In this document: piece after piece, positions 191-39,226 of the stretch | How the letters are laid out: each line of letters starts with the position of its first letter | How positions within the stretch are numbered: the stretch's first letter is position 1 | From: a virus | Lineage: Duplodnaviria; Caudoviricetes | DNA: 39,499 bases | IMG/VR virus record: IMGVR_UViG_3300011439_000009 | Location: 1 to 39,499 of that record | Reading direction: 5' to 3' (one strand) | Program-made: the position numbers and the translations under genes | The notes under the pieces: model-generated | The model's database searches: none | Seen by the model: the letters and a program-made list of their open reading frames with translations, nothing else | Told to the model about the DNA's origin: nothing

Positions 191-668
191 AGAATTTCTC
201 CACCTTGCTGTTGCTGACGCGAGTGTGATTTTTGTTGTGATGCTCAAGGCAGTACGAGCTGCCGTCGGCCTGCTGCCTGCCGCAGTAAAGGACCGACGGC
301 TTCTCCTGCACGATCTCGCGGCAGTGCCAGCCCTCCAGCTCCATGATGCCGACGTGCTTGCCGGACAGCCTCTTCATCCTGATCTCCTCCATCATGGGTT
401 TCTCCCGCTTCACGATGATCTTAATCCTCGGACTGATCTTCGGTTTTAGTGTCGTGAGAACGCGCTTCGGGCCACGCCGCGCCGGTCGCATGCGATGATC
501 GGACTGCAGGCCGAGACGCCGCGCCTTGCCTATGATCGCGTTGCGCGTGAACAGGTAGCCAAATTCCTTGGCAATGTTCTCTGCCAGCATGGTTCTGTAG
601 TTGTCGCGCAGGAACTGCACCCGCTCGTCGGTCCAATCGGGATTGAAATTGACGTTCTTCGCGGGCAT
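177..668 (-). CDS. gcrA: GcrA cell-cycle regulator homologue
   Basis: N-terminal WTDERVQFLR...TRNAIIGKARRLGL and C-terminal LEGWHCR...LYCG...SYCLEHH motifs are typical of GcrA. The start at 668 overlaps the upstream stop (TGATG). Confidence 0.9.
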   Translation of the reverse strand: MPAKNVNFNPDWTDERVQFLRDNYRTMLAENIAKEFGYLFTRNAIIGKARRLGLQSDHRMRPARRGPKRVLTTLKPKISPRIKIIVKREKPMMEEIRMKRLSGKHVGIMELEGWHCREIVQEKPSVLYCGRQQADGSSYCLEHHNKNHTRVSNSKVEKFYGGL

Positions 669-892
669 CAGATCATGCCCCACAGGCTGTCGTCGCCGAC
701 GTAGCCCTTCGCCGCCAGCTCGTCCTGTATCCGGCGATAGGTTCTGGCCGGGAGCCGGTCGTACAGGTTCTTCCAATTCAGCGCGACACGATACGGCACC
801 TCTGTGATCTCGCTGACCTTGTGCGTGTCGCCCAGCGCGTTAAACACGGCCTCGACGCTGTCGAGCCGCTTCAACCTCTTGTTAGGCATCAT
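668..892 (-). CDS. Small Cro-like/HTH DNA-binding protein
   Basis: ~74 aa with VFNALGDTHKVSEITEVPYRVALNWK, resembling a Cro-type HTH. First gene of a leftward operon next to a divergent AT-rich intergenic region. Confidence 0.55.
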   Translation of the reverse strand: MMPNKRLKRLDSVEAVFNALGDTHKVSEITEVPYRVALNWKNLYDRLPARTYRRIQDELAAKGYVGDDSLWGMI

Positions 893-925
893 GTGTGATG
901 TCCACATTTCCATTTGCTATGACAT

Positions 926-5423: not shown

Positions 5424-8270
5424 CTACCTCGCTCGCGCGTATTTGAAGGGGTGTTCTGCGAAGGCGGCGTAAATGAAGGTATTGCCGCTCGAATTACCGT
5501 GCGGGTTCGTAGTCCTTAACTTGAACCCATTGCTTAAAATGTCGATCTCCAACCCCGCCGCCGTGTATTCAGGGTCTGCAAGATCGGGAAACAAAATCGA
5601 AACCGTGCCGTTCGTAGGCTGCCGTGCCGTATCCCGCACCCACCAACTAGCTCCTGCTACCGATGTTAGTTTCGTCAGCAACCATCGCGGCCTGAAGCCG
5701 GTCCACACAAACGGGCCGTCTACGAGGCCGTTACCGATGTAGCTGCCGAATGCAGAGAAACCGGGGATGCTCGCAAACAGGTATCCGACAAAAACCTCCC
5801 CGGTAATCTGAATGCCGTTCGCCACAAAAAACTGTGTCGAGGTTGGTTCGCCGCCCCAAATCCCGGCAGAGGTTGCTTTCGCGGCAGTTGTGTTGAGAAC
5901 CAAATAATTATCTTGCATAGACGCGCCTAGCGACTTGTGCGTCAAGAACCAAGTGCGCGGCGCAACGGCGGCCCTTGATCGCGTCAATATCATTTCCGGT
6001 TTGACACCGAGCGAGTGCGGGATTGCAGCCGCCGATGCCGTCAAGTTGACAATATCGACGCCCGGTATCGCCCCCTTGTCCCAAACCCAATCGACGTAGC
6101 TGACCGCGTTGGTATTGATCTGTGCAATTCCGCCACAAGTAAAGCCGTTCGCTGGCGAGAACGTAATGCCACTACCAGCATCGTTCACTTCTGCGTCGGT
6201 AGTGTTTGTCTCAAGCCTCAACCCGCTCCCGCGAGCCGTGTCGCTAACCGCATGATCGGTCGCGACACCTCTGCTCTTGATCCACACTAAATCTGGTGAG
6301 AACCGCAAACCAGACACGATGTTCGCTCCACCGTTTCCGGTTCGCAGATTGACCGTCATCGCATCATCGCCGCGCTTAATCGCTGGCGTCGGGAGGTTCT
6401 GCGTACAGAGCGCCTTGAAGCCAGCGGGGGCGGCGAACGCGAACGGGCGCTGACCGAAATTGAAATCGCCGTTTGCCGCCCCGCCAGAACCGCGCCCGAT
6501 AGAGGCCAAATAGGTATCCGGAACCAAACCGCTAAACGCAGTTCCTTGGCTGGCACCATCTCTGTAAAACGCCAACGTGCCTGCGGTGGCGTCGAACGCA
6601 ACACCAATTACAACACCCGCGCCGTAAGGCGTACCGTAAGCAGCACCCGCGCTATTGGTGTATTTTTGACCATCAACAGCGTAGTATGCCCATCCGCTCG
6701 CACCAAAAGCAGCGGTCGCCCCCGACGAGACAATACCAATCATCTGGTTCACAGTACCGCTGGGCGTAAATTCCCAATACCACTGACCGGCAGACATTCC
6801 AAAAGTCGAAACTTGAGGGAGAGCGCCACTGGCTGCTGTTGCGGCAGTCAGGTTTCCGTTGGTCGGTGTGCCACCATCACCCGTTATCGGAGACAAGGTT
6901 GCGTAATTCCCCCGCACCTCGCCGCCGCCATTCGCGCCGGGTGCGCCGTAGTTGGTCGGCGTATCGACAAGGCTGTCGTTGCCAACGCCAGCGGTGACGC
7001 TGAAAGCGTTTGGCGTCCAATTCTTGTCAGACACCGCCGCGCCGTTGGTGTATTGCAGCTCTGCCGGGATGATGCCGCCGTTCACACTACTAGCGCGGAA
7101 AAATATAATACTCGCGCCGTTGGTGGTCGTTGGATCACCGACAATAATGCGAACAATGGCACTACCAGCCGTGCCGTGAGTTACTGTGACCGAACATTTC
7201 CACCACCCGCCACCGACATTCTCAATGGTCGGGACTACACCGCTCCCGGTCCCAACTATGCCAGATGTCGGTATCGTGCCGGTTGCCAATTCAAATGCAG
7301 CATACCCGCCGTTGACGGCATCGTTGTATAAAGTAAACCGCGAAATCGCTACTGCGGCAGCGTAGACAGTGTAAGTTGTTTGCTGCCCAGCGGCTACGGT
7401 GCGCGAGGCTTGAATATATGGATTTGCGGTAGAGGAACCAACCGCCAAGATGACCGCGCGAGTGCCGCCGAGCGGATCGTTAGCCCCAGCAGTCAAAACG
7501 ACATTGTTGAATTTGCTCCAATACGCATTCAAGAAATCATCCGAATACGTCAACAGGTTCGACATGCCGCTGCGGTCTTTACCGAGCGCCGCCGCCGTCG
7601 CTGCGCCGTTGTCGGCAAAATCCAGCTTGAAACCGTTGGCACCGTAATGGCCAGTGTAGGCTTTCGGCATCCAGACGCCGGTCGCCGGATCAATTTGTCC
7701 GAATGCAGACGCCGGTTGTACCAAGCCGTCGATAAAATGAAGTTCAGCAAGATAGAAATCACTATACGTTGAACCACCTGACGATCGACCAATTCGGTGT
7801 TCGATGCTGCTGTTGATTATCGGATCAATTCCGGTTGCAAGCTGGTTGTTTATTGTAACATCCTGCCGGTTCCCATTGATCCAAAGCTGCATCCTATCCG
7901 CTGAGGTTGCGTTGTCCGTGTCGTAAGTGCCGACAAGATGAAGCCACCCAGCCGGGTCGCGAAACGATCCTGCTGTCGAGATATATCCACGCAATACCGA
8001 CGCCGCCCGGTCATAGAAATCAATCTTGCTCGCCGTCCCAGAAAAATAAATACCACTTTCATCAGTAGTCGTCGTTCCAGCAAAAAACACCGGAGTAACC
8101 CCGGTTGGGATAGCCGCGCGCTTAATCCAAGTCGAAACAGTGTATTTGCGGCGGTTGGTCGCCACACCCAATGTCCGATTGAGATATGTGCTGTCCGCCG
8201 AGTTGAACCGCAGCGACCGCGCGATCCTGTAGCCGCTGTCTGGAATGCTGACCGGAAGATTGAACGGCAT
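5424..8270 (-). CDS. Receptor-binding fibre/spike protein with LamG-like and SPRY domains
   Basis: SLRFNSADSTYLNRT...TVSTWIKR...WLHLV (LamG-like); GQWYWEF...VIGVAFDATAGTLAFYRDG...NFGQ (SPRY); FSPDLVWIKSR and GFRPRWLLTK repeats. Confidence 0.8.
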   Translation of the reverse strand: MPFNLPVSIPDSGYRIARSLRFNSADSTYLNRTLGVATNRRKYTVSTWIKRAAIPTGVTPVFFAGTTTTDESGIYFSGTASKIDFYDRAASVLRGYISTAGSFRDPAGWLHLVGTYDTDNATSADRMQLWINGNRQDVTINNQLATGIDPIINSSIEHRIGRSSGGSTYSDFYLAELHFIDGLVQPASAFGQIDPATGVWMPKAYTGHYGANGFKLDFADNGAATAAALGKDRSGMSNLLTYSDDFLNAYWSKFNNVVLTAGANDPLGGTRAVILAVGSSTANPYIQASRTVAAGQQTTYTVYAAAVAISRFTLYNDAVNGGYAAFELATGTIPTSGIVGTGSGVVPTIENVGGGWWKCSVTVTHGTAGSAIVRIIVGDPTTTNGASIIFFRASSVNGGIIPAELQYTNGAAVSDKNWTPNAFSVTAGVGNDSLVDTPTNYGAPGANGGGEVRGNYATLSPITGDGGTPTNGNLTAATAASGALPQVSTFGMSAGQWYWEFTPSGTVNQMIGIVSSGATAAFGASGWAYYAVDGQKYTNSAGAAYGTPYGAGVVIGVAFDATAGTLAFYRDGASQGTAFSGLVPDTYLASIGRGSGGAANGDFNFGQRPFAFAAPAGFKALCTQNLPTPAIKRGDDAMTVNLRTGNGGANIVSGLRFSPDLVWIKSRGVATDHAVSDTARGSGLRLETNTTDAEVNDAGSGITFSPANGFTCGGIAQINTNAVSYVDWVWDKGAIPGVDIVNLTASAAAIPHSLGVKPEMILTRSRAAVAPRTWFLTHKSLGASMQDNYLVLNTTAAKATSAGIWGGEPTSTQFFVANGIQITGEVFVGYLFASIPGFSAFGSYIGNGLVDGPFVWTGFRPRWLLTKLTSVAGASWWVRDTARQPTNGTVSILFPDLADPEYTAAGLEIDILSNGFKLRTTNPHGNSSGNTFIYAAFAEHPFKYARAR

Positions 8271-11779: not shown

Positions 11780-14380
11780 TCAGTCCCCAATGCTTCTGCC
11801 GACTTGCGCCCCGGCGGCTTTAGACCCCGCGTTCTCCGCCATCGTGCGAAGCACATTCATAATACGCGCATCGCCTGCCGCCGCCTGCACCGCGCGTTGG
11901 ATGATCGCGGGATCGTTCGACACCAGCTGCCGCGCCAGATGCTCTGCCATCCTTCGATCTGCGAACTTTCGTGCGCCCAACACGCCGCCAGCATACAGCG
12001 CCGCGCCGCCCGGCGTGGTCGGATCGAAATACGACGTGTTGCCGGTCATCATCGAGATCGGAACGCCGCCGCCACCCAGCACTCCGGCTGCGATCAGCTG
12101 CTGCGCCGTCGAGCTGTTGCCGCGCACCGCATTCCGCAGTCTCTCCATCAGGTTCTCGGCGTGATGCATCGCCTCAAATTCGCGGATCAATCCCTGATCA
12201 CCATTGAACAGCACCCGCAGCTTGGCCTGCGCGTCTGGGCTGGCGTTCATCTTTTTCCACAGGTCGTGGCTGTCGTTCTTCTGCCCCATCTTGTCGAGCA
12301 GCTGGCTCAACGCCGAGCGGCGGAATGCATCCTGCGCGTCCGGCGACATGCCGCGCATGGCGTTCATCGCCATCTGCGGCGTGAACAAGTTGCTCTTGAT
12401 GAACCGCTGCCCCTCTTCGATGGCGCGGGTGACGCCAAAATATGCTTCCGATGTCGCTCGCGCCGTCGCGTAGGGGCCTTGCGGGCCTCCGGTGACGTTG
12501 TCCAGCTCGTTGAGCAGAACACGCTTCAGCCCGGTCAGCGCATTGACGTCGCCAGCGCCACCCGGCGTGGCCCGCGCTGCCGTGATCTGATTGTCGATGA
12601 TCCGCTTGGTGGCATCCCAGAACTCGAGACTGTCAACGCCCGGCGTCACACGCCCCTCGACGGCGGCGCGATCTCCGATCTCGCGCAGCGCCCGTTGCCC
12701 GGCATCGTTCAGCCGCTGATGACCCTGCAGCAGCTGCAGCAGTCGCGGCGACACCACGCCGCGCGAGAACTGCTGCATCACTCCCTGATACAGCGGTGTC
12801 GTGGTCTGCGCCTGCTCCGCGCGAACCGCCAGCTTCGCCATCTCGTTGTCGCCGAGCGGCCCGACCCTGTTCTCCAGCATCGCCACCAGACGCGGGAATT
12901 GTCCACGCGCCCGATCCTCGACGGCACCCTGCATGATGTCGGCGGCGACCGGCGAGATGTTCTTGGTCGAACGCGCCAGCACCCGGCCCGGCTCGCCGAG
13001 AATGTCGGCGACCATCGTGTCCGGCGTCATCTGGCCCGGCAGCACCCGGCTTTGCGGCGAGGTGCGAGCGGCCTCCATCGCCGTCCGCGCGATGGTGTTT
13101 TCGGCCTGCTTGGCTGGCGAAAAAATCCCGTGGACGGCGCGACCGATATAGTCGGCAATCGTCGGAGCCACCCCCGCCACCGCCGCGCCGATCCCGGCCC
13201 CTCCGGCTGTGCCAATCGCCGCCGGGCCGACCCGCTGCGAGATGTCGCCCTCCGCCGATCCCGCGCCACTCAGGCCGCCCGCAAGGCCGCCCTGCAGGGC
13301 GCTGGAGCCGACGCGAGCTGCCGTGGTGCGTCCGGCGCTGGTCAGCGGCCCGCCGGGCAACGGTACAGCGACACCGCCAGCCAGCTCGCCGCCCAGCACG
13401 GTGCCGGGGTAGTGCTGCTTGGCCTCCGCCAGCACCCGCCGCGCCTCGGCGACGGCCTTGTTGTAGGCCTCCGCCGTCACGGCATTGGGGTCTTTCGTGT
13501 AGGAACCCCACGCCAGCTTCGCCAGATCGAGCGCCGAGCCGCCGCCGGGGATGGTCGCCAGACCGGCGGCGAGGCCGCGCAGCTCGTCGGACCAGCCGAA
13601 CGATATGCCCTGCTCGACGCCGGTCGCGAACGCCTCGCCCTGCGACATGGGCGGCTTCACGTCCGGCGGCAGCGTCGGCTTCGGCACCACGTTGCTCTGC
13701 GGCGGCGGCGCGTCGGTCGCGAACGGATTGCCGGGCGTGATCTTGTTCGACGCCAGCGCCACCATGCCGGTCAGCGCACTCGCGTCGTCAGGCGAAATCG
13801 TGGGCGGCGCGGCAGAACGGGCAGCAGCGCCGCCCCGACTTGCCGGAGGGGACGAGGAACCCCCGCGCGGCTCATCCGGTGAGTAGAAGAGATGCCCGCC
13901 GATGTTGGCGAGCGGAGCGCCCTGCGCCCACGACGGGGCGTTGCGGCCCAGCGAAGCCTGCGCCCTCGGCGCGTAGAAATGCGTTGCGCCCTGCGTGGTG
14001 TCCTTCACCGAGCCGCTGAGAACGCTGTCCACGATCTGCGCGATGGATTGATAATTCGGATCGTCCTCGCGCAGCCCCAGCATCCGCGCCCGCGCGTCGG
14101 GACGATGCCACGGCTCGAATGCCCACGGCTTCTTGATCACGCCCTCCGCGCCCTGACCATACTTGCCGGACGTGATGCGGTTGCGGATCACGTTGGCGAC
14201 GGCGGCGCGGCCCGCCTCGTCCTTGTCTGCCGCCTCGCCGAAGATGGTGCGGATCACAAGGTCACGCGCTCGCGGGTCGATCTCAATTGGATCGGCGAAC
14301 ACGCTCGGCCCGACGACGTCGGCGAACGGATTGACGTCCGCTGTCGGCGACGGGACTGTGATGCGAAGCGGCTCGGCCAT
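11780..14380 (-). CDS. Large DNA ejection (internal virion) protein with N-terminal SleB/Hydrolase_2 cell-wall hydrolase domain
   Basis: RTIFGEA...AVANVIRNR...AFEPW...DTTQGATHFY...IGGHLFY motif; the rest is Ala/Gly-rich and helical; third of three ejection-type genes. Confidence 0.8.
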   Translation of the reverse strand: MAEPLRITVPSPTADVNPFADVVGPSVFADPIEIDPRARDLVIRTIFGEAADKDEAGRAAVANVIRNRITSGKYGQGAEGVIKKPWAFEPWHRPDARARMLGLREDDPNYQSIAQIVDSVLSGSVKDTTQGATHFYAPRAQASLGRNAPSWAQGAPLANIGGHLFYSPDEPRGGSSSPPASRGGAAARSAAPPTISPDDASALTGMVALASNKITPGNPFATDAPPPQSNVVPKPTLPPDVKPPMSQGEAFATGVEQGISFGWSDELRGLAAGLATIPGGGSALDLAKLAWGSYTKDPNAVTAEAYNKAVAEARRVLAEAKQHYPGTVLGGELAGGVAVPLPGGPLTSAGRTTAARVGSSALQGGLAGGLSGAGSAEGDISQRVGPAAIGTAGGAGIGAAVAGVAPTIADYIGRAVHGIFSPAKQAENTIARTAMEAARTSPQSRVLPGQMTPDTMVADILGEPGRVLARSTKNISPVAADIMQGAVEDRARGQFPRLVAMLENRVGPLGDNEMAKLAVRAEQAQTTTPLYQGVMQQFSRGVVSPRLLQLLQGHQRLNDAGQRALREIGDRAAVEGRVTPGVDSLEFWDATKRIIDNQITAARATPGGAGDVNALTGLKRVLLNELDNVTGGPQGPYATARATSEAYFGVTRAIEEGQRFIKSNLFTPQMAMNAMRGMSPDAQDAFRRSALSQLLDKMGQKNDSHDLWKKMNASPDAQAKLRVLFNGDQGLIREFEAMHHAENLMERLRNAVRGNSSTAQQLIAAGVLGGGGVPISMMTGNTSYFDPTTPGGAALYAGGVLGARKFADRRMAEHLARQLVSNDPAIIQRAVQAAAGDARIMNVLRTMAENAGSKAAGAQVGRSIGD

Positions 14381-20039: not shown

Positions 20040-21005
20040 CTAGCCGCGTCTGCGGCTGGGCGGAAGGCTTTCCTTGAACAGCGTCTCGTCGTCGAGGCCC
20101 ATCGCCACCATCGACGTCTCGGTCGGCGAGCCGGACGGGACGCGCGACAGCGACGGCGGTATCTGCGTGACGTTGTTCTGCCGTGGCGGCGCGGCACCAT
20201 TCGGTTGCGGCGGCGGCTGACCGGCGGCGTAATTCTTTGCCGCCTCCACCGCGCGGGACAGGAATTGCGGATCGGCCAGACGCCGCGCGATCTCCTGCTC
20301 GACGTACTTGTCGGGATCGTCGCCGACCTTCGCCAGCGTCACGGCGCGGCGATACCAATTCACCATCGCCGAGCCGGGATTGGGCGAGTTGACGATCAGC
20401 CGCGCGAAGCCGGGGTCGCCCTGCGCCGCCTGCATGAACGCCTGATAGGCGTGGTCGAACACCTCGCCGTGCTGCAGCCGGTTCAGCTGCAGATTGTTTT
20501 CGAGCTGGATGGTCTTGAGGTCGCTGGTGAACTTGCCCTCCAGCGCGGCGCGGTAGCCCTGCGGGTCGATCAGCGGGTCGGGCAGCTCTGCCGGGGCCTG
20601 CGGCTTCTCGTACTGCTCCATGCGGCGCTGCATGTCGCGCAGCATGAGATCGCGCTCCTGCAGCTGACGCGCCATCGCCTCGCGCTGCTCGCGCTCCTCG
20701 CGCAACCGCCACGACGGTACGTTGGCGTCGTCTTGCGGGGGTTGTGCAGGCGGCGTTGGCGTTCCGGGTGGCGGCTGCGGAGTAGGCTGGCCGGGAGGAG
20801 CTGGCGGTGGTGGTGCCGGTGGTTCGCTGGGCGGCTTCGGGGCCTGATCCTCCGCCCTGCGGAAGCGGCCATGAATGTCGCGGCCCTCGACCTCCGGGTG
20901 AGGCGGCGGCGCGGTGTCCGGCTTCGGCTCCGGCGCGGTGGCGTTGGAGAATAGCTCGCTGTCGCTGACGCCGACGTCCGGCGTCTCGGTTGTTTCAGCC
21001 ATCAA
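20040..21005 (-). CDS. Capsid scaffolding protein
   Basis: Acidic/Pro-rich N-terminus with RDIHGRF; VPSWRLREERE coiled coil; PDPLIDP..Y; PPSLS C-terminus; directly before the capsid gene. Confidence 0.8.
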   Translation of the reverse strand: MMAETTETPDVGVSDSELFSNATAPEPKPDTAPPPHPEVEGRDIHGRFRRAEDQAPKPPSEPPAPPPPAPPGQPTPQPPPGTPTPPAQPPQDDANVPSWRLREEREQREAMARQLQERDLMLRDMQRRMEQYEKPQAPAELPDPLIDPQGYRAALEGKFTSDLKTIQLENNLQLNRLQHGEVFDHAYQAFMQAAQGDPGFARLIVNSPNPGSAMVNWYRRAVTLAKVGDDPDKYVEQEIARRLADPQFLSRAVEAAKNYAAGQPPPQPNGAAPPRQNNVTQIPPSLSRVPSGSPTETSMVAMGLDDETLFKESLPPSRRRG

Positions 21006-21015
21006 TCACCCCTCG

Positions 21016-21975: not shown

Positions 21976-22848
21976 ATGACCGTCTACACAAACACCGCTC
22001 GCTTCGATGGCACCGCCCGTCCAATGACCGAAGATGAAATCCGCGCAGTAGCACCGTCGGTGTTTGCTGTGACGGCGCATGCTTCGCGCTCGGAACGCTT
22101 CAAGCCGATCCCGACCATCGAGGTCGTGCGCGGTTTGGCGAAGGAAGGCTTCTCGGTGGTTGGTGCCTCGCAGTCCGTCGCCCGCATGGCGGATCGCAAG
22201 CTGTTCACCAAGCATCTGCTCCGCATCCGTCAGCTCGACGAGACGCGCAGCTTCAAGTCCGGCGACGTCGTGCCGGAGATGCTGCTGAAGAACGCCAACG
22301 ACGGCAGCGGCGCATACGATCTGATGGCGGCGCTGTTCCGCATCGCCTGCCTCAACAGCATGGTGTCGCTAGTCTCGCAGCTCTCCAGCTGCAAGGTGCG
22401 CCACACTGGCGACGTCTCCGGCAAGGTGATCGAGGGAACGTTCTCGGTGATCGACGAGAGCCGCAAGGCACTCGCTGCCCCGGAGGCGTGGTCGTCGCTG
22501 CAGCTCGGCGGCGAGGAGCAGATGATCTTCGCCAACGCCGCTCACCAAATCCGCTTCGGTGAGCAGATCGAGGGCGAGGCCCCGGTGTCGGCCATCGAGC
22601 CGGTGCAGCTGCTGCAGCCCAGAAGGTGGGAGGACCGTAGCAACGACCTCTGGACTACGTTTAACAGGGTCCAAGAGAATGCCTTGAAAGGTGGCCTCTC
22701 TGGTCGTCGCACCAACGACAACGGCATCGTCCGTCGCTCAACGACGAGGCCCATCAAGGGCGTGGACAGCAACGTCAATCTCAATAAGGCGTTGTTCGTT
22801 CTTGCCAATGCAATGGCGGAACTTCGCGGGATTAAAATAGCAGCGTAG
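21976..22848 (+). CDS. DUF932 domain-containing protein
   Basis: APSVFA...H.SRSERF..IPT...FTKHLLR...N.NDG...FRIACLN...DLWTTFNRVQEN...N..LNKALF; AAGGAG RBS. Confidence 0.88.
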   Translation: MTVYTNTARFDGTARPMTEDEIRAVAPSVFAVTAHASRSERFKPIPTIEVVRGLAKEGFSVVGASQSVARMADRKLFTKHLLRIRQLDETRSFKSGDVVPEMLLKNANDGSGAYDLMAALFRIACLNSMVSLVSQLSSCKVRHTGDVSGKVIEGTFSVIDESRKALAAPEAWSSLQLGGEEQMIFANAAHQIRFGEQIEGEAPVSAIEPVQLLQPRRWEDRSNDLWTTFNRVQENALKGGLSGRRTNDNGIVRRSTTRPIKGVDSNVNLNKALFVLANAMAELRGIKIAA

Positions 22849-22854
22849 AATAAA

Positions 22855-22887
22855 CGGCGCGGGGTCTGACCACCCCGCGCCGACTTT
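22855..22887 (+). terminator. GC-rich hairpin / probable terminator after DUF932
   Basis: CGGCGCGGGGT-CTGACC-ACCCCGCGCCG followed by ACTTT. Confidence 0.6.
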
Positions 22888-22904
22888 AACTAGGAGAACG
22901 CCAC

Positions 22905-23396
22905 ATGCTTACCGCAGATCGGCTGCGCGAACTACTCGATTACAATCCCGTCACCGGGGTATTTTTATGGAAGATTGACCGGGCCAGCGCCGCTCGCGTC
23001 GGATCGCTGGCTGGATACCGCAGGCGCGACGGCTACACCGGCATGAAGATCGATCAGCGTGAGCTACTCGCCCACCGCGTTGCTTGGTTGCATGTTCACG
23101 GTCGGTGGCCGGTTGACCAGCTTGATCATGTCAACGGCATCAAATCAGACAATCGTCTGACCAATCTGCGCGAGGCGTCTCGCGCTGAAAACAAATGCAA
23201 TACCAAGCGCCCCGCAACCAATACGTCAGGGTTTAAAGGCGTTACTTGGCACACCCACACCAAACGATGGGCGGCTCGACTGACGGTAAATCGTAGGAGG
23301 GTCCACCTCGGATACTTTTCCACAGCGGAGGAAGCGCATACCGCCTACTGCAGCGCAGCCGCCCAACAATATGGCCGGTTCTTCAACCCCGGCTAA
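22905..23396 (+). CDS. HNH homing endonuclease with AP2-like domain
   Basis: AHRVAW...DHVNGIKSDNRLTNLREA...NTSGFKGV...HLGYF...EEA..AY; AGGAG RBS. Confidence 0.92.
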   Translation: MLTADRLRELLDYNPVTGVFLWKIDRASAARVGSLAGYRRRDGYTGMKIDQRELLAHRVAWLHVHGRWPVDQLDHVNGIKSDNRLTNLREASRAENKCNTKRPATNTSGFKGVTWHTHTKRWAARLTVNRRRVHLGYFSTAEEAHTAYCSAAAQQYGRFFNPG

Positions 23397-23399
23397 ACC

Positions 23400-23945
23400 T
23401 TTGTATCGTCTACCGATACCAAAATTGTGCGTGGCCGGACAATTCGCGCTGCCCGGCCACGACTTAGCTGAAGCCGCCCAAGGGGTGATTAGAGCCGCCT
23501 AGCCACCCGGCAAACCCACAACCATCTAGTATGGTTCCCGCTTGCCAGAGCTGGGCAACGAGGCGTAGGCTCAAATGCAAGGGGCTGATCGGTTTGCGCC
23601 AATCAGCCCCTCTAATCCGTTACCATCGTGCGGCGAAGGTAAGGACGTCGGGCCAAAACTAGCAATCCCGGCCCCAGACATCAACCCCAGCCAGCCACGA
23701 ACGGTCGCGGTCGATAACGGCCAAGCTGTTGGACGTCTGCTCGGTGGCTCCCGGTCCATAGAAGCTGGTCGAGATCGCGCTGCCCTGAGCCGTGGGGAAC
23801 GCCGGGTATTGGCCCGGCCCGTTGGCCACTTTCGGACGGCTGATCCAGCGAGGACGAGCGAGTACTCCGGCAGGAGAAAATTCCTGCTCCCAATCGGGAT
23901 GCGATGCCTCTCTGGTGGGGTATCGCTGGAGGAAAGTGGCGGGGG
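23400..23945 (-). ncRNA. Candidate large structured non-coding RNA (~545 nt), family unassigned
   Basis: Longest gap lacking a credible gene; more than 10 helices including nested long-range stems; G-U wobbles favour the minus strand. Confidence 0.6.
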
Positions 23946-23972
23946 TGTATTCTGTGCGCCCATATTAAATGG

Positions 23973-23997
23973 TTGACGGCTTCCATTGGATATGGGA
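23973..23997 (+). promoter_or_regulatory. Early promoter/operator motif copy 2 (TTGACGGCTTCCATTGGATATGGGA), with an extra CCAT-N5-ATGG box at 23960-23972
   Basis: Near-identical to 21903-21927; precedes the small-gene cluster starting at 24038. Confidence 0.75.
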
Positions 23998-33836: not shown

Positions 33837-33886
33837 AAAGGGGCCGGGTTTCCCCAGCCCCTTCCACAGGCGTGTCCCGTGAAACA

Positions 33887-36936: not shown

Positions 36937-37267
36937 TCCCGATCTTCCTGATGAATAGAATGTTGTTGGTGTATTTCCAGCGGTCGAACCACGAATGAAT
37001 GTCGCTCACCTGTGGCGAGTAGAACTCCCACTCCGGCACCGCATCCAGCGGCACGTCGTAGAACTGTGATCGAGCGAAGCCGTCGCAGCGCATGTGACGC
37101 TGCCCGGCCACCGCCAGCACCGACCGGCATCTCAGCTCGTAGGGGACGCGCCCGATCCCCGGCTCGACGGTGACGGCTTCGGACTTGCACTTGTCGCAGA
37201 CGTATCGATTGAGCCGTCGCTCCCCATCTGTGGGAGCAGGAACATCAACCCTTCTTCGTTCACCCAT
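36917..37267 (-). CDS. Putative Zn-ribbon hypothetical protein
   Basis: YVCDKC...C...C motif; start uncertain. Confidence 0.5.
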   Translation of the reverse strand: MGERRRVDVPAPTDGERRLNRYVCDKCKSEAVTVEPGIGRVPYELRCRSVLAVAGQRHMRCDGFARSQFYDVPLDAVPEWEFYSPQVSDIHSWFDRWKYTNNILFIRKIGNADKAD

Positions 37268-37407
37268 CGCATCACCCCTTCGGGACCAATCATCCCGTGC
37301 TTCAAGCTGACGCCGATTGCCAGCAGCTCGTTCTCCATCAGCTTCACCTTCAGCACCGCCGCCCGCAGCGCCGCCAGCATGAACTCCCTGCGCCCCTCGT
37401 CGCTCAT
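37132..37407 (-). CDS. Hypothetical protein
   Basis: MSDEGRREFMLAALR...; GGGAG RBS; ATGA overlap with the helicase. Confidence 0.6.
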   Translation of the reverse strand: MSDEGRREFMLAALRAAVLKVKLMENELLAIGVSLKHGMIGPEGVMRWVNEEGLMFLLPQMGSDGSIDTSATSASPKPSPSSRGSGASPTS

Positions 37408-38903
37408 GCCAGCTCCCGCTGCTTCTGCTTGCCCTTGTAGTAAGCGATCATCCGCGACTTGATCCAGCCGCGCATGTCCTCGGTGATCAGCGCCTCGACC
37501 TCTCGCAATCCCTGCGTCCCGACACCGAACAGTTCGCGGTGCGCCAACCCCACCCAGCCCGGCTTGTAGCCCTTCAGCCGCGCATGCATCAGCAGTTGCG
37601 AGTAGCAGGCCTGCCGCCCCTGCGCGATCAGCCGCTCCTTCACCGTCTTGGGCGGCTTCTGCTGCCGGGTATGCCGGTCGATCTCCAGCAGCTCGCCGTC
37701 GGCGCAGACGATGGCACCGTCGCGCGGCGTGTGCGTGAAGCCACAGTGCGGACAGGTCTTGGTCTTGGGCGGCAGCAGGGCGCTGCAGCCGACGCACGGC
37801 TTCGGCAGCTTGATGGTGTCGCTGGCGTCCTTCTTCGCCCGCGCCTTGCCGTCGTTCAGCTCCGGGTGATTGATGTCGGTGACGAACCCCAACCGCTGAT
37901 GGTTGTCGCTGTGATCGAGGATGAGACAGTGATCCTTACCTGTCGCGGTGCGGAGGCCCCTCCCAATGATCTGGACGTGCAGCATCTCCGACTTGGTCGG
38001 TCGCGCCACCACGATGCAGCGAACGTCCCAATCGACGCCCGTGGTCAGCGTCCCGACGTTGCAGACCACCTTGGTGTCACCCTGATGGAAGCGGTGCCGG
38101 ATCAGGTGCCGGGCCTCGCCCTTGGTGTAGGCGTCCTGATAATCGGTCGGCACACCGGCTGCGATGAACTCCCGCTGCAGCGCCTGCGCGTGAGCGCAAT
38201 CCACGGCGAAGCACAGCGTCGGCCTGTTCTGGGCGAGCCGCAGCCACGTCTGCACCACGTCTGCCACCAAGCCGCCCTCGTTCATCACGCGGCTGAGATC
38301 GCCTTCGTGGTAGTCGCCCGCCACCGTGCGGACGCCGGACAGGTCGGGATGGCTCGGCCCGTACACCCTGAAATCTGACAGGTAGCCTTGGTCGATCAGC
38401 TGCTGCGTCGTCACCGGCTGCAGCAGCTTCGTGAAATACGATCCCAACCCCTTCGTCCACGGTGTCGCCGACAATCCGATGATCGGCTTCTTCGCATGCG
38501 CCGGATCGAGAACCATCTTGGCGTAGAACTCAAACCAGCGATGCACCTCGTCGATGATGATCATGTCGCAGTCGGGGAATTGCCGCTTCATCAGCGTCTG
38601 CACCGACGCCACCTGAACCTTGCAGCGACCGTCGGTCATCTCATGCATCGCCTGCATCACGCCGACGTCATCGACGCCCTCGCCCTGCAGGACGCCGACC
38701 GTCTGGTCGATCAATGACAGCGCAGGCACCACGAACAGGATGCGCTTGCCCTTCTTCAATGCGCTGTCGATCAGCGCCGCGCCGACCAGCGTCTTGCCCG
38801 CGCCGGTTGGGGCCTGCACCACGACGCGCGTGTCGCCGCCGCGAACGGTTTCGCGCAGATCGTCGATGGCCCTAATCTGGTAGTCGCGCAGCTCCGTGAT
38901 CAT
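37404..38903 (-). CDS. SF2 DExH helicase (YejH/RadD-like) with Zn finger
   Basis: LRDYQ, APTGAGKT, DEVH, GLSATP, LTTGVD, QIIGRGLR, CVGC...CPHCG. Confidence 0.92.
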   Translation of the reverse strand: MITELRDYQIRAIDDLRETVRGGDTRVVVQAPTGAGKTLVGAALIDSALKKGKRILFVVPALSLIDQTVGVLQGEGVDDVGVMQAMHEMTDGRCKVQVASVQTLMKRQFPDCDMIIIDEVHRWFEFYAKMVLDPAHAKKPIIGLSATPWTKGLGSYFTKLLQPVTTQQLIDQGYLSDFRVYGPSHPDLSGVRTVAGDYHEGDLSRVMNEGGLVADVVQTWLRLAQNRPTLCFAVDCAHAQALQREFIAAGVPTDYQDAYTKGEARHLIRHRFHQGDTKVVCNVGTLTTGVDWDVRCIVVARPTKSEMLHVQIIGRGLRTATGKDHCLILDHSDNHQRLGFVTDINHPELNDGKARAKKDASDTIKLPKPCVGCSALLPPKTKTCPHCGFTHTPRDGAIVCADGELLEIDRHTRQQKPPKTVKERLIAQGRQACYSQLLMHARLKGYKPGWVGLAHRELFGVGTQGLREVEALITEDMRGWIKSRMIAYYKGKQKQRELA

Positions 38904-39226
38904 CTCGGCCATCTCCACTCGATTGGTGAAACCGTCAACGGCGGCATGATGTCGGCCACCGCATCCGGCAGTATCTCCAGCGGATCAGGCACGACCACCG
39001 CCACCGGCAGCAACGGCCTCCGCCTGATCTCGACGCCCTTCGCCATCGCTCGCGCAGCCATCAGCGAATTGCCCCAGCACCGGCCACGGGGGCCAACACT
39101 CCAGTACAGGTGCGTGTTGCGGTACGCTTTCCGCGCCTCGTATCTTGTCAGGCACGTCGCCCCCTGCGCTTCAACGCTAGCCAATATCGGAAGGAACGCG
39201 AGCAGGATGGAGAGCAGCGTCCTCAT
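38900..39226 (-). CDS. Hypothetical protein with N-terminal signal/TM segment
   Basis: MRTLLSILLAFLPILASVEAQG; AAGGAGG RBS; two Cys. Confidence 0.65.
   Translation of the reverse strand: MRTLLSILLAFLPILASVEAQGATCLTRYEARKAYRNTHLYWSVGPRGRCWGNSLMAARAMAKGVEIRRRPLLPVAVVVPDPLEILPDAVADIMPPLTVSPIEWRWPR

Follow-up and report, generated by a model that had tools for sequence, protein, structure and literature searches.

A covarying non-coding cassette with two facing promoter-like elements in a tailed phage, laid out like an antisense-controlled replication region

A stretch of the genome of a soil-type tailed phage, positions 23400-23945 of the window (by which we mean the whole 39,499 nucleotides of DNA that were analysed), is a real, covarying, folded non-coding element that is apparently undescribed; no description of it was found among the literature titles searched, so motif catalogues outside Rfam could hold it. 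A first-pass annotation had read the stretch as one large minus-strand RNA of about 545 nt. Comparison with its relatives shows instead that the conserved unit is a cassette and not the full 545 nt: two facing sigma-70-like promoters, predicted by consensus, which overlap across two hairpins, plus a rod of about 105 nt on the minus strand. We tentatively read this cassette, with a little less than even confidence, as an RNA-primed or RNA-activated replication origin that carries a short antisense RNA.

The window is a complete phage record of 39.5 kb with terminal repeats, and its gene content includes terminase, portal, capsid, SF2 helicase, exonuclease, RecT and at least two HNH nucleases. 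A homologue of GcrA is encoded by the phage at 177-776 on the minus strand (E 7e-20); upstream of it an 81-aa ORF (668-913, minus strand), Cro-like by eye and with no Pfam match, could be the repressor for the operator-like sites described below. In a GTDB scan the relatives of the capsid protein came mostly from assemblies of Hyphomicrobiales and Caulobacterales, and the host is therefore probably an alphaproteobacterium; together with the GcrA homologue, these relatives support the earlier description of the phage as an alphaproteobacterial podophage. No element was detected by nhmmer within 10 kb of the GTDB capsid relatives. A phage-sized plasmid record of 38 kb from Caenibius sp. WL (NZ_CP081845.1) encodes a capsid protein that is 35% identical and may be a phage-plasmid relative.

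The element is placed in a plus-strand island within the minus-strand late region, and on the gene map it does look like the only long gap of the genome. It follows a DUF932 gene (21976-22848, plus strand), which in the window's clade borders the slot on the left, and a plus-strand HNH-AP2 endonuclease gene (22905-23396, assigned by Pfam), which is an optional insertion beside the element. On the other side, outside the RNA element, lies a separate early promoter on the plus strand (23959-23996, with TTGACG at 23973) that carries two CCAT-N5-ATGGG operator-like sites; one related locus, L009, has the same arrangement of promoter and operator sites without the element. CCAT-N5-ATGGG occurs five times in the genome against 0.31 expected, and the five sites lie at early promoter-like elements (21913, 23959, 23983, 35494 and 36435). 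A TTGAT-type promoter-like site is also found 5' of the terminase operon, at 33838.

Six relatives were found beyond the window's own copy, giving seven sequences in about four lineages, with the window, L004 and L006 forming one phage clade and L248 and L285 being nearly the same. L004 and L006 are two diverged copies from capsid-linked loci and occupy the same slot as the window's copy. Profile searches of helicase-linked loci brought in L248 (E 4e-9) and L237 (E 2e-4), a 17-mer scan L285, and a relaxed architecture scan L239. Over all loci the relaxed scan returned nine distinct matches, namely the seven members, L038 and L255, where shuffled sequence gave 2 and 3, and the membership of L239 also rests on its position, its rod and a C-rich 17-mer in common with L006. 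A strict descriptor matched only the six members then known (292 loci, 3.5 Mb with duplicates). The copies in the window and L248 are 80% identical over 434 columns. A pattern scan of metagenomes gave 22 loci, four of them copies of three known versions and 18 chance-like, and a search of 78 sources with a sequence-only model added no further copy. No likeness in sequence to any plasmid or phage origin was found by blastn, which gave nothing meaningful against annotated phages and a best E of 0.004 against plasmids (a 39-nt hairpin match), with no origin annotated among the matches listed. Two of the loci, L254 at about 806 and L255 at about 5160 (minus strand), have in common a promoter-like element with a GC-rich hairpin leader behind it, which the relaxed scans picked up and which is not this element.

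The four long-range stems and nine local hairpins proposed at first all pair at their positions, and the folding of 23400-23945 is better than that of shuffled sequence, with z -4.74 on the minus strand and -2.95 on the plus strand and 0 of 100 shuffles as good on either; the whole minus-strand stretch reaches z -4.66 in L004 and -7.79 in L006. When segments of 250 nt were scanned over 151-24900 (99 segments, both strands, 10 shuffles each), the minus-strand segment 23401-23650 gave the lowest of the 198 values (z -5.83) and 23651-23900 gave -0.57. The fold signal is concentrated in 23398-23648 (z -4.88). The same 10-shuffle scan gave z near -5 at 7151-7400 (plus), 12401-12650 (minus) and 22651-22900 (plus), the last of which includes a terminator-like hairpin at 22855-22882.

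The claim that the stretch is non-coding also stands: its three overlapping ORFs are without PHROG match, no ORF of the stretch recurs in L004, L006 or L007, and no ORF of at least 20 aa is common to these three and the window, on which ground a conserved ORF or a type I toxin-antitoxin pair with a small hydrophobic ORF was rejected. Covariation was found as well, in that stem arms change together in the six relatives. The preference for the minus strand is supported by 40 G-U against 7 A-C pairs over helices in six homologues under symmetric scoring, a count that includes one wrongly chosen window helix contributing 1 G-U and 2 A-C; the consensus fold is -125.0 on the minus strand versus -112.6 on the plus strand. 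The two GACGTC copies at 23644 and 23732 are present in the window and absent from all six homologues, so that they do not stand as a conserved feature, and a role as kissing sites was rejected.

The predicted minus promoter (23656-23684) consists of TTGATG (23684-79), a spacer of 17 nt and TAGTTT (23661-56), with a predicted start at G23649. TTGATG-N16/17-TA and a purine at +7 are each found in six of six sequences, and the L239 version reads TTGACG. The predicted facing promoter (23542-23577, plus strand) has TTGCCA (23542-47), a spacer of 18 nt and TAGGCT (23566-71), and its predicted start, G23577, lies at the foot of the second hairpin. Each homologue has one -35-like hexamer for this plus promoter, at 72-75 nt from the base of the first hairpin in five and at 94 nt in L237, whose second hairpin is longer; it is a perfect TTGACA in L237 and L239, and the -10 is good in four sequences and weak in L248, L285 and L239. 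The distance from the minus -35 to the plus start is 107-113 nt in six of the seven copies and 133 nt in L237. The two predicted transcripts would overlap by about 72 nt, exactly the two hairpins.

The first of these hairpins, H1 (23615-23646, minus strand), would open the predicted short antisense RNA; over six sequences its pairs comprise 59 Watson-Crick, 2 G-U and 1 mismatch, and when each sequence's own arms were compared with foreign ones the true combination ranked 4 of 720 on the minus strand. The second, H2 (23579-23612, minus strand), is a strong covarying hairpin with a weak U tail (65 Watson-Crick, 9 G-U, 0 A-C and 0 mismatches in six sequences), ranks 2 of 720 in the same comparison, shows double changes in the alignments, and is a possible terminator of an RNA of about 75 nt. 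The hairpin around the minus -10 ranks 2 of 720, or 1 of 720 with L239 replacing L285, and covaries equally well on both strands. For this hairpin, 23650-74, an extension through G-U pairs had been offered as evidence of strand; the outer Watson-Crick arms do covary, on either strand, and they alone do so, the extension spanning the promoter-like -10. A tRNA-anticodon-like loop was considered here and rejected, the UGCUA loop not being kept in L248, L285, L237 and L239.

The rod (23615-23712, minus strand) is an irregular fold whose 5' arm holds the minus -35, whose tip holds the -10 and whose 3' arm is the H1 region. It folds in seven of seven sequences, and in the arm comparison with six sequences it ranks 1 of 720 on the minus strand and 12 of 720 on the plus strand. 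It is more stable on the minus strand in six of six, by 2.5-21 kcal/mol. The plus strands fold as separate hairpins or as a partial rod. Rod and H1 are mutually exclusive. The rod includes 60 nt upstream of the predicted minus start, and it needs a single minus strand, of RNA or of DNA, begun upstream of 23649.

That single strand could be DNA. The folds would then form in single-stranded DNA and the minus rod would be a priming signal of the sso/ssi/pas type, for host RNA polymerase or the primosome on the displaced strand, beside ordinary promoters. G-T wobble accounts for the strand bias no less well than G-U pairing, every copy keeps the rod, and carriers without a primase need a priming signal. 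In the single-strand promoters that are known, however, the template lies beyond the -10, and here the -10 sits at the tip loop with no template beyond; moreover, most predicted rods leave the invariant TTGA unpaired. We consider this explanation quite improbable.

The single strand could also be RNA, and the main rival of the origin reading is one long minus-strand non-coding RNA of a new class, acting in trans and running from about 23945 to 23575, or to 23400 in the window's clade, whose rod might bind host RNA polymerase as a decoy. The G-U bias, the rod's covariation, which is best on the minus strand, and its need for a long single minus strand speak for it, as do the whole-stretch folds of the window, L004 and L006; moreover, TTGATG is invariant in six of seven copies and the rod carries the -35 and -10 letters at promoter spacing. 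Further support comes from D1, a predicted three-way junction at 23825-23940 (minus strand; P1 23940-32/23833-25, P2 starting CUCC/GGAG, P3 23859-23839), which is conserved with compensatory changes. The same topology is predicted in the window, in L248 and in a consensus of three sequences, and P1 has 32 of 32 Watson-Crick pairs over the window, L248, L285 and L237. The stem 23844-51/23923-30 is an alternative pairing within D1, kept in L248 and L285 with a double change and one bulge (by eye). Between D1 and the rod, a middle block (23715-23824, minus strand) is highly conserved in sequence in the same four copies, L004, L006 and L239 having other sequence there.

Against one long minus RNA, D1 is present in only those four of the seven copies and is replaced in L004, L006 and L239, and no conserved promoter is seen, by eye, upstream of it. 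The 5' halves fold weakly alone (z -2.99, +0.99 and -1.82) compared with the 3' halves (-4.88, -6.41 and -7.31), and L248 reaches only z -2.2 overall. The exclusion of the rod by H1 and the purine at +7 in all copies fit a real internal promoter, and both the facing promoter and the NrdR-like boxes described below are features at the level of DNA. We therefore judge the long minus RNA unlikely, ahead of the other rivals considered here.

The outer parts of the stretch likewise differ from copy to copy. Positions 23400-23500 form a separate module, carried by L007 without the core and with no counterpart seen in L248, L285, L237 or L239. It comprises a slot-specific 3' module (23466-23504, minus strand; in the window, L004, L006 and L007) with a hairpin and a C-rich, anti-Shine-Dalgarno-like loop (23491-23480), and the slot-specific terminal hairpins 23461-30 and 23419-03 (within 23403-23461, minus strand) at the end of the stretch, which are likely to be one or more terminators between converging transcripts. 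The pseudoknot-type pairing 23487-94/23610-17 joins the core to this module, unseen in the four relatives. Thus of the single unit of about 545 nt the 5' domain is borne out by its conservation in L248, L285 and L237, and the unit as a whole is unsupported: its ends are not conserved, no conserved promoter was seen to precede 23945, and it encloses two conserved promoter-like elements that face each other.

Non-coding modules seem to be exchanged in the slot itself. What L007 has in common with the window is limited to about the last 100 nt; its slot (L007:530-860) is filled by another structured sequence (z -3.35), whose hairpins include three TTCATTCCTTG repeats and which is joined to the same 3' module, and L009 has a protein gene in this place. 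The C-rich loop 23480-23491 can pair over 13 nt (2 G-U) with the ribosome site 21003-21015 of a 321-aa gene, likely the scaffold gene, upstream of the capsid gene. Regulation of that gene by the loop was rejected, the 13-nt match being found in the window only, with none of 10 nt or more in L004, L005, L006 and L007.

Among known large phage RNAs, GOLLD and ROOL, to which the first-pass annotation had likened the element, are also phage-borne, structured, several hundred nucleotides long and of unproven function. Neither was found when the window and six homologue loci were searched with the Rfam models at E cutoffs of 10 or 5. GOLLD and ROOL often lie near tRNA islands and GOLLD is often longer than 800 nt, according to passages of PMC12286853; in contrast, the element consists mostly of local hairpins, has unconserved ends and internal promoters, and has no tRNA beside it (0 tRNA genes in the window by ARAGORN, as had been claimed). 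GOLLD and ROOL have a conserved multi-pseudoknot fold over their full length; the parts shared among copies of the element are the rod, H1, H2 and, in four of seven, D1. Membership in GOLLD or ROOL is not supported, given the lack of a covariance-model match and of tRNA, and the element's absence from Rfam is borne out by 0 matches at gathering score in the window. The Rfam models for 6S, tmRNA, RNase P, introns, C4, ctRNA and RNAI gave only weak, unrelated matches, none at gathering score. HEARO RNAs have an obligate linkage to a nuclease ORF on the same strand; a HEARO or other HNH-associated RNA was rejected, since the HNH gene is convergent, L004 and L006 do not have it, and L007 has it without the core.

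The position of the cassette in four relatives, inside the replication module, points to replication. In L237 and L239 it lies between GcrA and the helicase operon, which includes (L237) or begins with (L239) a homologue of a 91-aa ORF of the window. In L248 and L285 it is upstream of an 80-aa ORF followed by a Zn-ribbon/DUF7146/Toprim primase, with the helicase next in L248; tblastn of the 80-aa ORF against annotated phages gave nothing. In these four loci the predicted short RNA always points away from the replication genes. In the window's clade the cassette is intact among unrelated genes and followed by an independent promoter, so it does not rely on its neighbours, and it has most likely moved in the window's lineage, since the interval between GcrA and helicase of the window has no such gap.

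The window's SF2 helicase and the 91-aa ORF that follows it (37132-38918, minus strand) have no primase where most relatives have one. A primase-like gene was seen in 60 of 73 helicase loci, the 13 others, some of them fragments, being without; the element was within the locus in one of the 60 primase-bearing loci, which were covered to 10 kb from the helicase, so that it could sit elsewhere in those genomes. Six-frame profile searches gave no match to a primase in the three complete carriers, namely the window, G001 and G006, and PHROG scans, which covered 54 window ORFs, 21 of 73 ORFs of G001 and 71 of 113 ORFs of G006, turned up neither a polymerase nor an initiator nor an integrase; ParB-like genes were found in G006 and, weakly, in G001. 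The L239 contig ends inside the helicase, which makes its lack of a primase gene uninformative. A small ORF family lies beside the helicase in element carriers (window 37132-37407, minus strand; L237:3934-4398; L239:7788-8123; L214:3791-4069), is 26-66% identical, has no Pfam or PHROG match for the copies tested, and could be a helicase loader or origin factor. In L248 (930-1060) and L285 (1905-2030), on the minus strand, a second conserved TTGACA promoter-like element is followed by a hairpin-rich leader of about 90 nt and a gene of about 190 aa without PHROG family.

Our preferred reading, an RNA-controlled origin, follows from the lambdoid-origin position of the cassette, its intactness away from its genes, its retention where the primase is missing and its RNA II/RNA I geometry. 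Both predicted promoters would fire, giving a long plus RNA of about 370 nt from 23577, made by the host polymerase, and a short minus RNA of about 75 nt from 23649. The long RNA would prime or open DNA synthesis near the purine-rich far end (about 23930-23950), and the short two-hairpin RNA, antisense to its 5' end, would damp this priming. ColE1 initiation uses Pol I, RNase H and PriA-type helicase loading, and the corresponding host enzymes would serve here. The rod and D1 would form whenever the minus strand is single, as a longer minus transcript or as exposed DNA; they favour the minus strand upstream of the sole minus promoter found, so that a plus-strand primer leaves them unexplained. 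Also against an origin, L248 and L285 carry both the element and a primase. The purine tracts (17-20 of 22) are only mildly unusual, 175 of 604 background stretches reaching 17 and 63 reaching 18. A G-rich skew of the plus strand was rejected as a sign of an origin, this G excess not being conserved.

At the level of sequence the element resembles ColE1/pMB1 in having a long transcript with an internal facing promoter and a short hairpin RNA against the long RNA's 5' end. In PMC12966454, the passages on ColE1/pMB1 define this group by an RNAII with an internal antisense promoter and state that no initiator protein is needed. The element differs in having no sequence or Rfam match to ColE1, in its two hairpins of about 75 nt where ColE1 has stem-loops I-III, in its residence in a tailed phage, in the NrdR-like boxes at its long-RNA promoter and in its conserved rod on the opposite strand. 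A ColE1-style alternative pairing of the long RNA with a downstream partner scores no better than shuffles (34-85 of 100 as good), which counts against the origin reading. The element also recalls the pO/oop region of lambda, where a convergent promoter is situated among the replication functions and influences initiation, as described in parts of PMC3985674: in both, a short counter-directed transcript lies in a replication region downstream of a regulator gene, whose place GcrA takes in L237 and L239. The element departs from lambda in that no O/P-type initiator was found, that it brings a facing promoter of its own together with 300-460 nt of conserved non-coding structure, and that it occupies two genomic sites. 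The element is thus laid out like ColE1 RNA I/II or lambda oop and is not a member of either by sequence.

Antisense-controlled rep leaders (pT181, Inc18, repABC ctRNA) and the sar RNA of P22 share with the element convergent promoters and a two-hairpin antisense RNA of about 70 nt. The element differs from the rep leaders in having no rep gene or ribosome site in the overlap, and it matches none of these systems in Rfam; the one weak sar match, in L070, is outside the element. The likeness raises the alternative that the cassette is an antisense-controlled leader of an early replication operon, of the lambda oop type or of the pT181/Inc18 attenuator type (an account of the pT181 attenuator is among the sections of PMC12966454), with the short RNA tuning read-through into primase or helicase genes and the window's copy either controlling small early genes or being a relic. 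The cassette is directly upstream of replication ORFs in L237, L239, L248 and L285, the facing-promoter geometry fits, and the far end of the L239 copy carries a plus-strand hairpin and a U run. Such a distal plus-strand terminator is, however, found in only one of the seven copies, the minus rod is left unexplained, and the downstream genes of the window's clade are served by an operator-flanked promoter of their own, yet the cassette has been retained there at the identity to L248 given above. We hold such a leader to be rather improbable.

The two hairpins that come right after the minus promoter also invite comparison with the put-like RNA antiterminators of HK022, by which the polymerase would read on into the late genes. 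A promoter followed at once by two adjacent hairpins is found in seven of seven copies, and terminator-like sites lie between the element and the capsid operon in the window; but the transcript would run antisense into GcrA in L237 and L239, and the next gene in L248 and L285 has its own promoter-like element. This is the least probable of the explanations that we weighed, and a very improbable one.

Several relatives add a further feature to the origin proposed here, since tandem NrdR-like boxes lie upstream of the plus promoter with spacings of 31, 31, 31 and 32 nt in L248, L285, L004 and L006. Their positions are about 1153-1199 in L248, about 2121-2167 in L285, 3491-3537 in L004 and 7069-7116 in L006. 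The scans used an NrdR-like box consensus, and under the strict pattern, across 284 loci and the window, no versions but those of L004 and L006 had pairs. No tandem pair was found in the window or, with a loose core, in L237; where relatives have the intact pair, the window has a single NrdR-like box (23516-23532) interrupted by one extra base. An NrdR operator consists of two palindromic boxes of 16 bp near a promoter. Their spacing, with 15-16 bp between the boxes, is given as the hallmark of NrdR in passages of PMC2892513 and PMC12051234. No match to a reductase was found in the genomes scanned of phages with tandem boxes. In these relatives host NrdR would gate the plus promoter, and such boxes would couple the transcription of the phage to the nucleotide pools of its host or sequester the repressor; in many genome copies, the putative boxes could titrate host NrdR and raise the supply of dNTPs.

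Taken as a whole, the proposal is that a family of alphaproteobacterial tailed phages has lost its primase and uses a movable, protein-free, RNA-primed origin. An antisense RNA made by the origin would keep it in check, in several members it would be linked to the host's dNTP sensor NrdR, and on the opposite strand a promoter-bearing rod would give either a second RNA or a signal for single-strand priming. In this full form we think the proposal doubtful, less likely than the origin reading by itself. Under either reading, origin or long RNA, the element is a covarying motif absent from Rfam. If the long minus RNA were the true explanation, the element would represent a new class of structured RNAs in phages, with a promoter-like rod built in. 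If the cassette is an origin, it would show by what route replication begins in tailed phages that lack primase, polymerase and initiator, it would extend a ColE1-like logic outside the enterobacterial plasmids, and it would offer a protein-free replicon of about 400 bp for Alphaproteobacteria.
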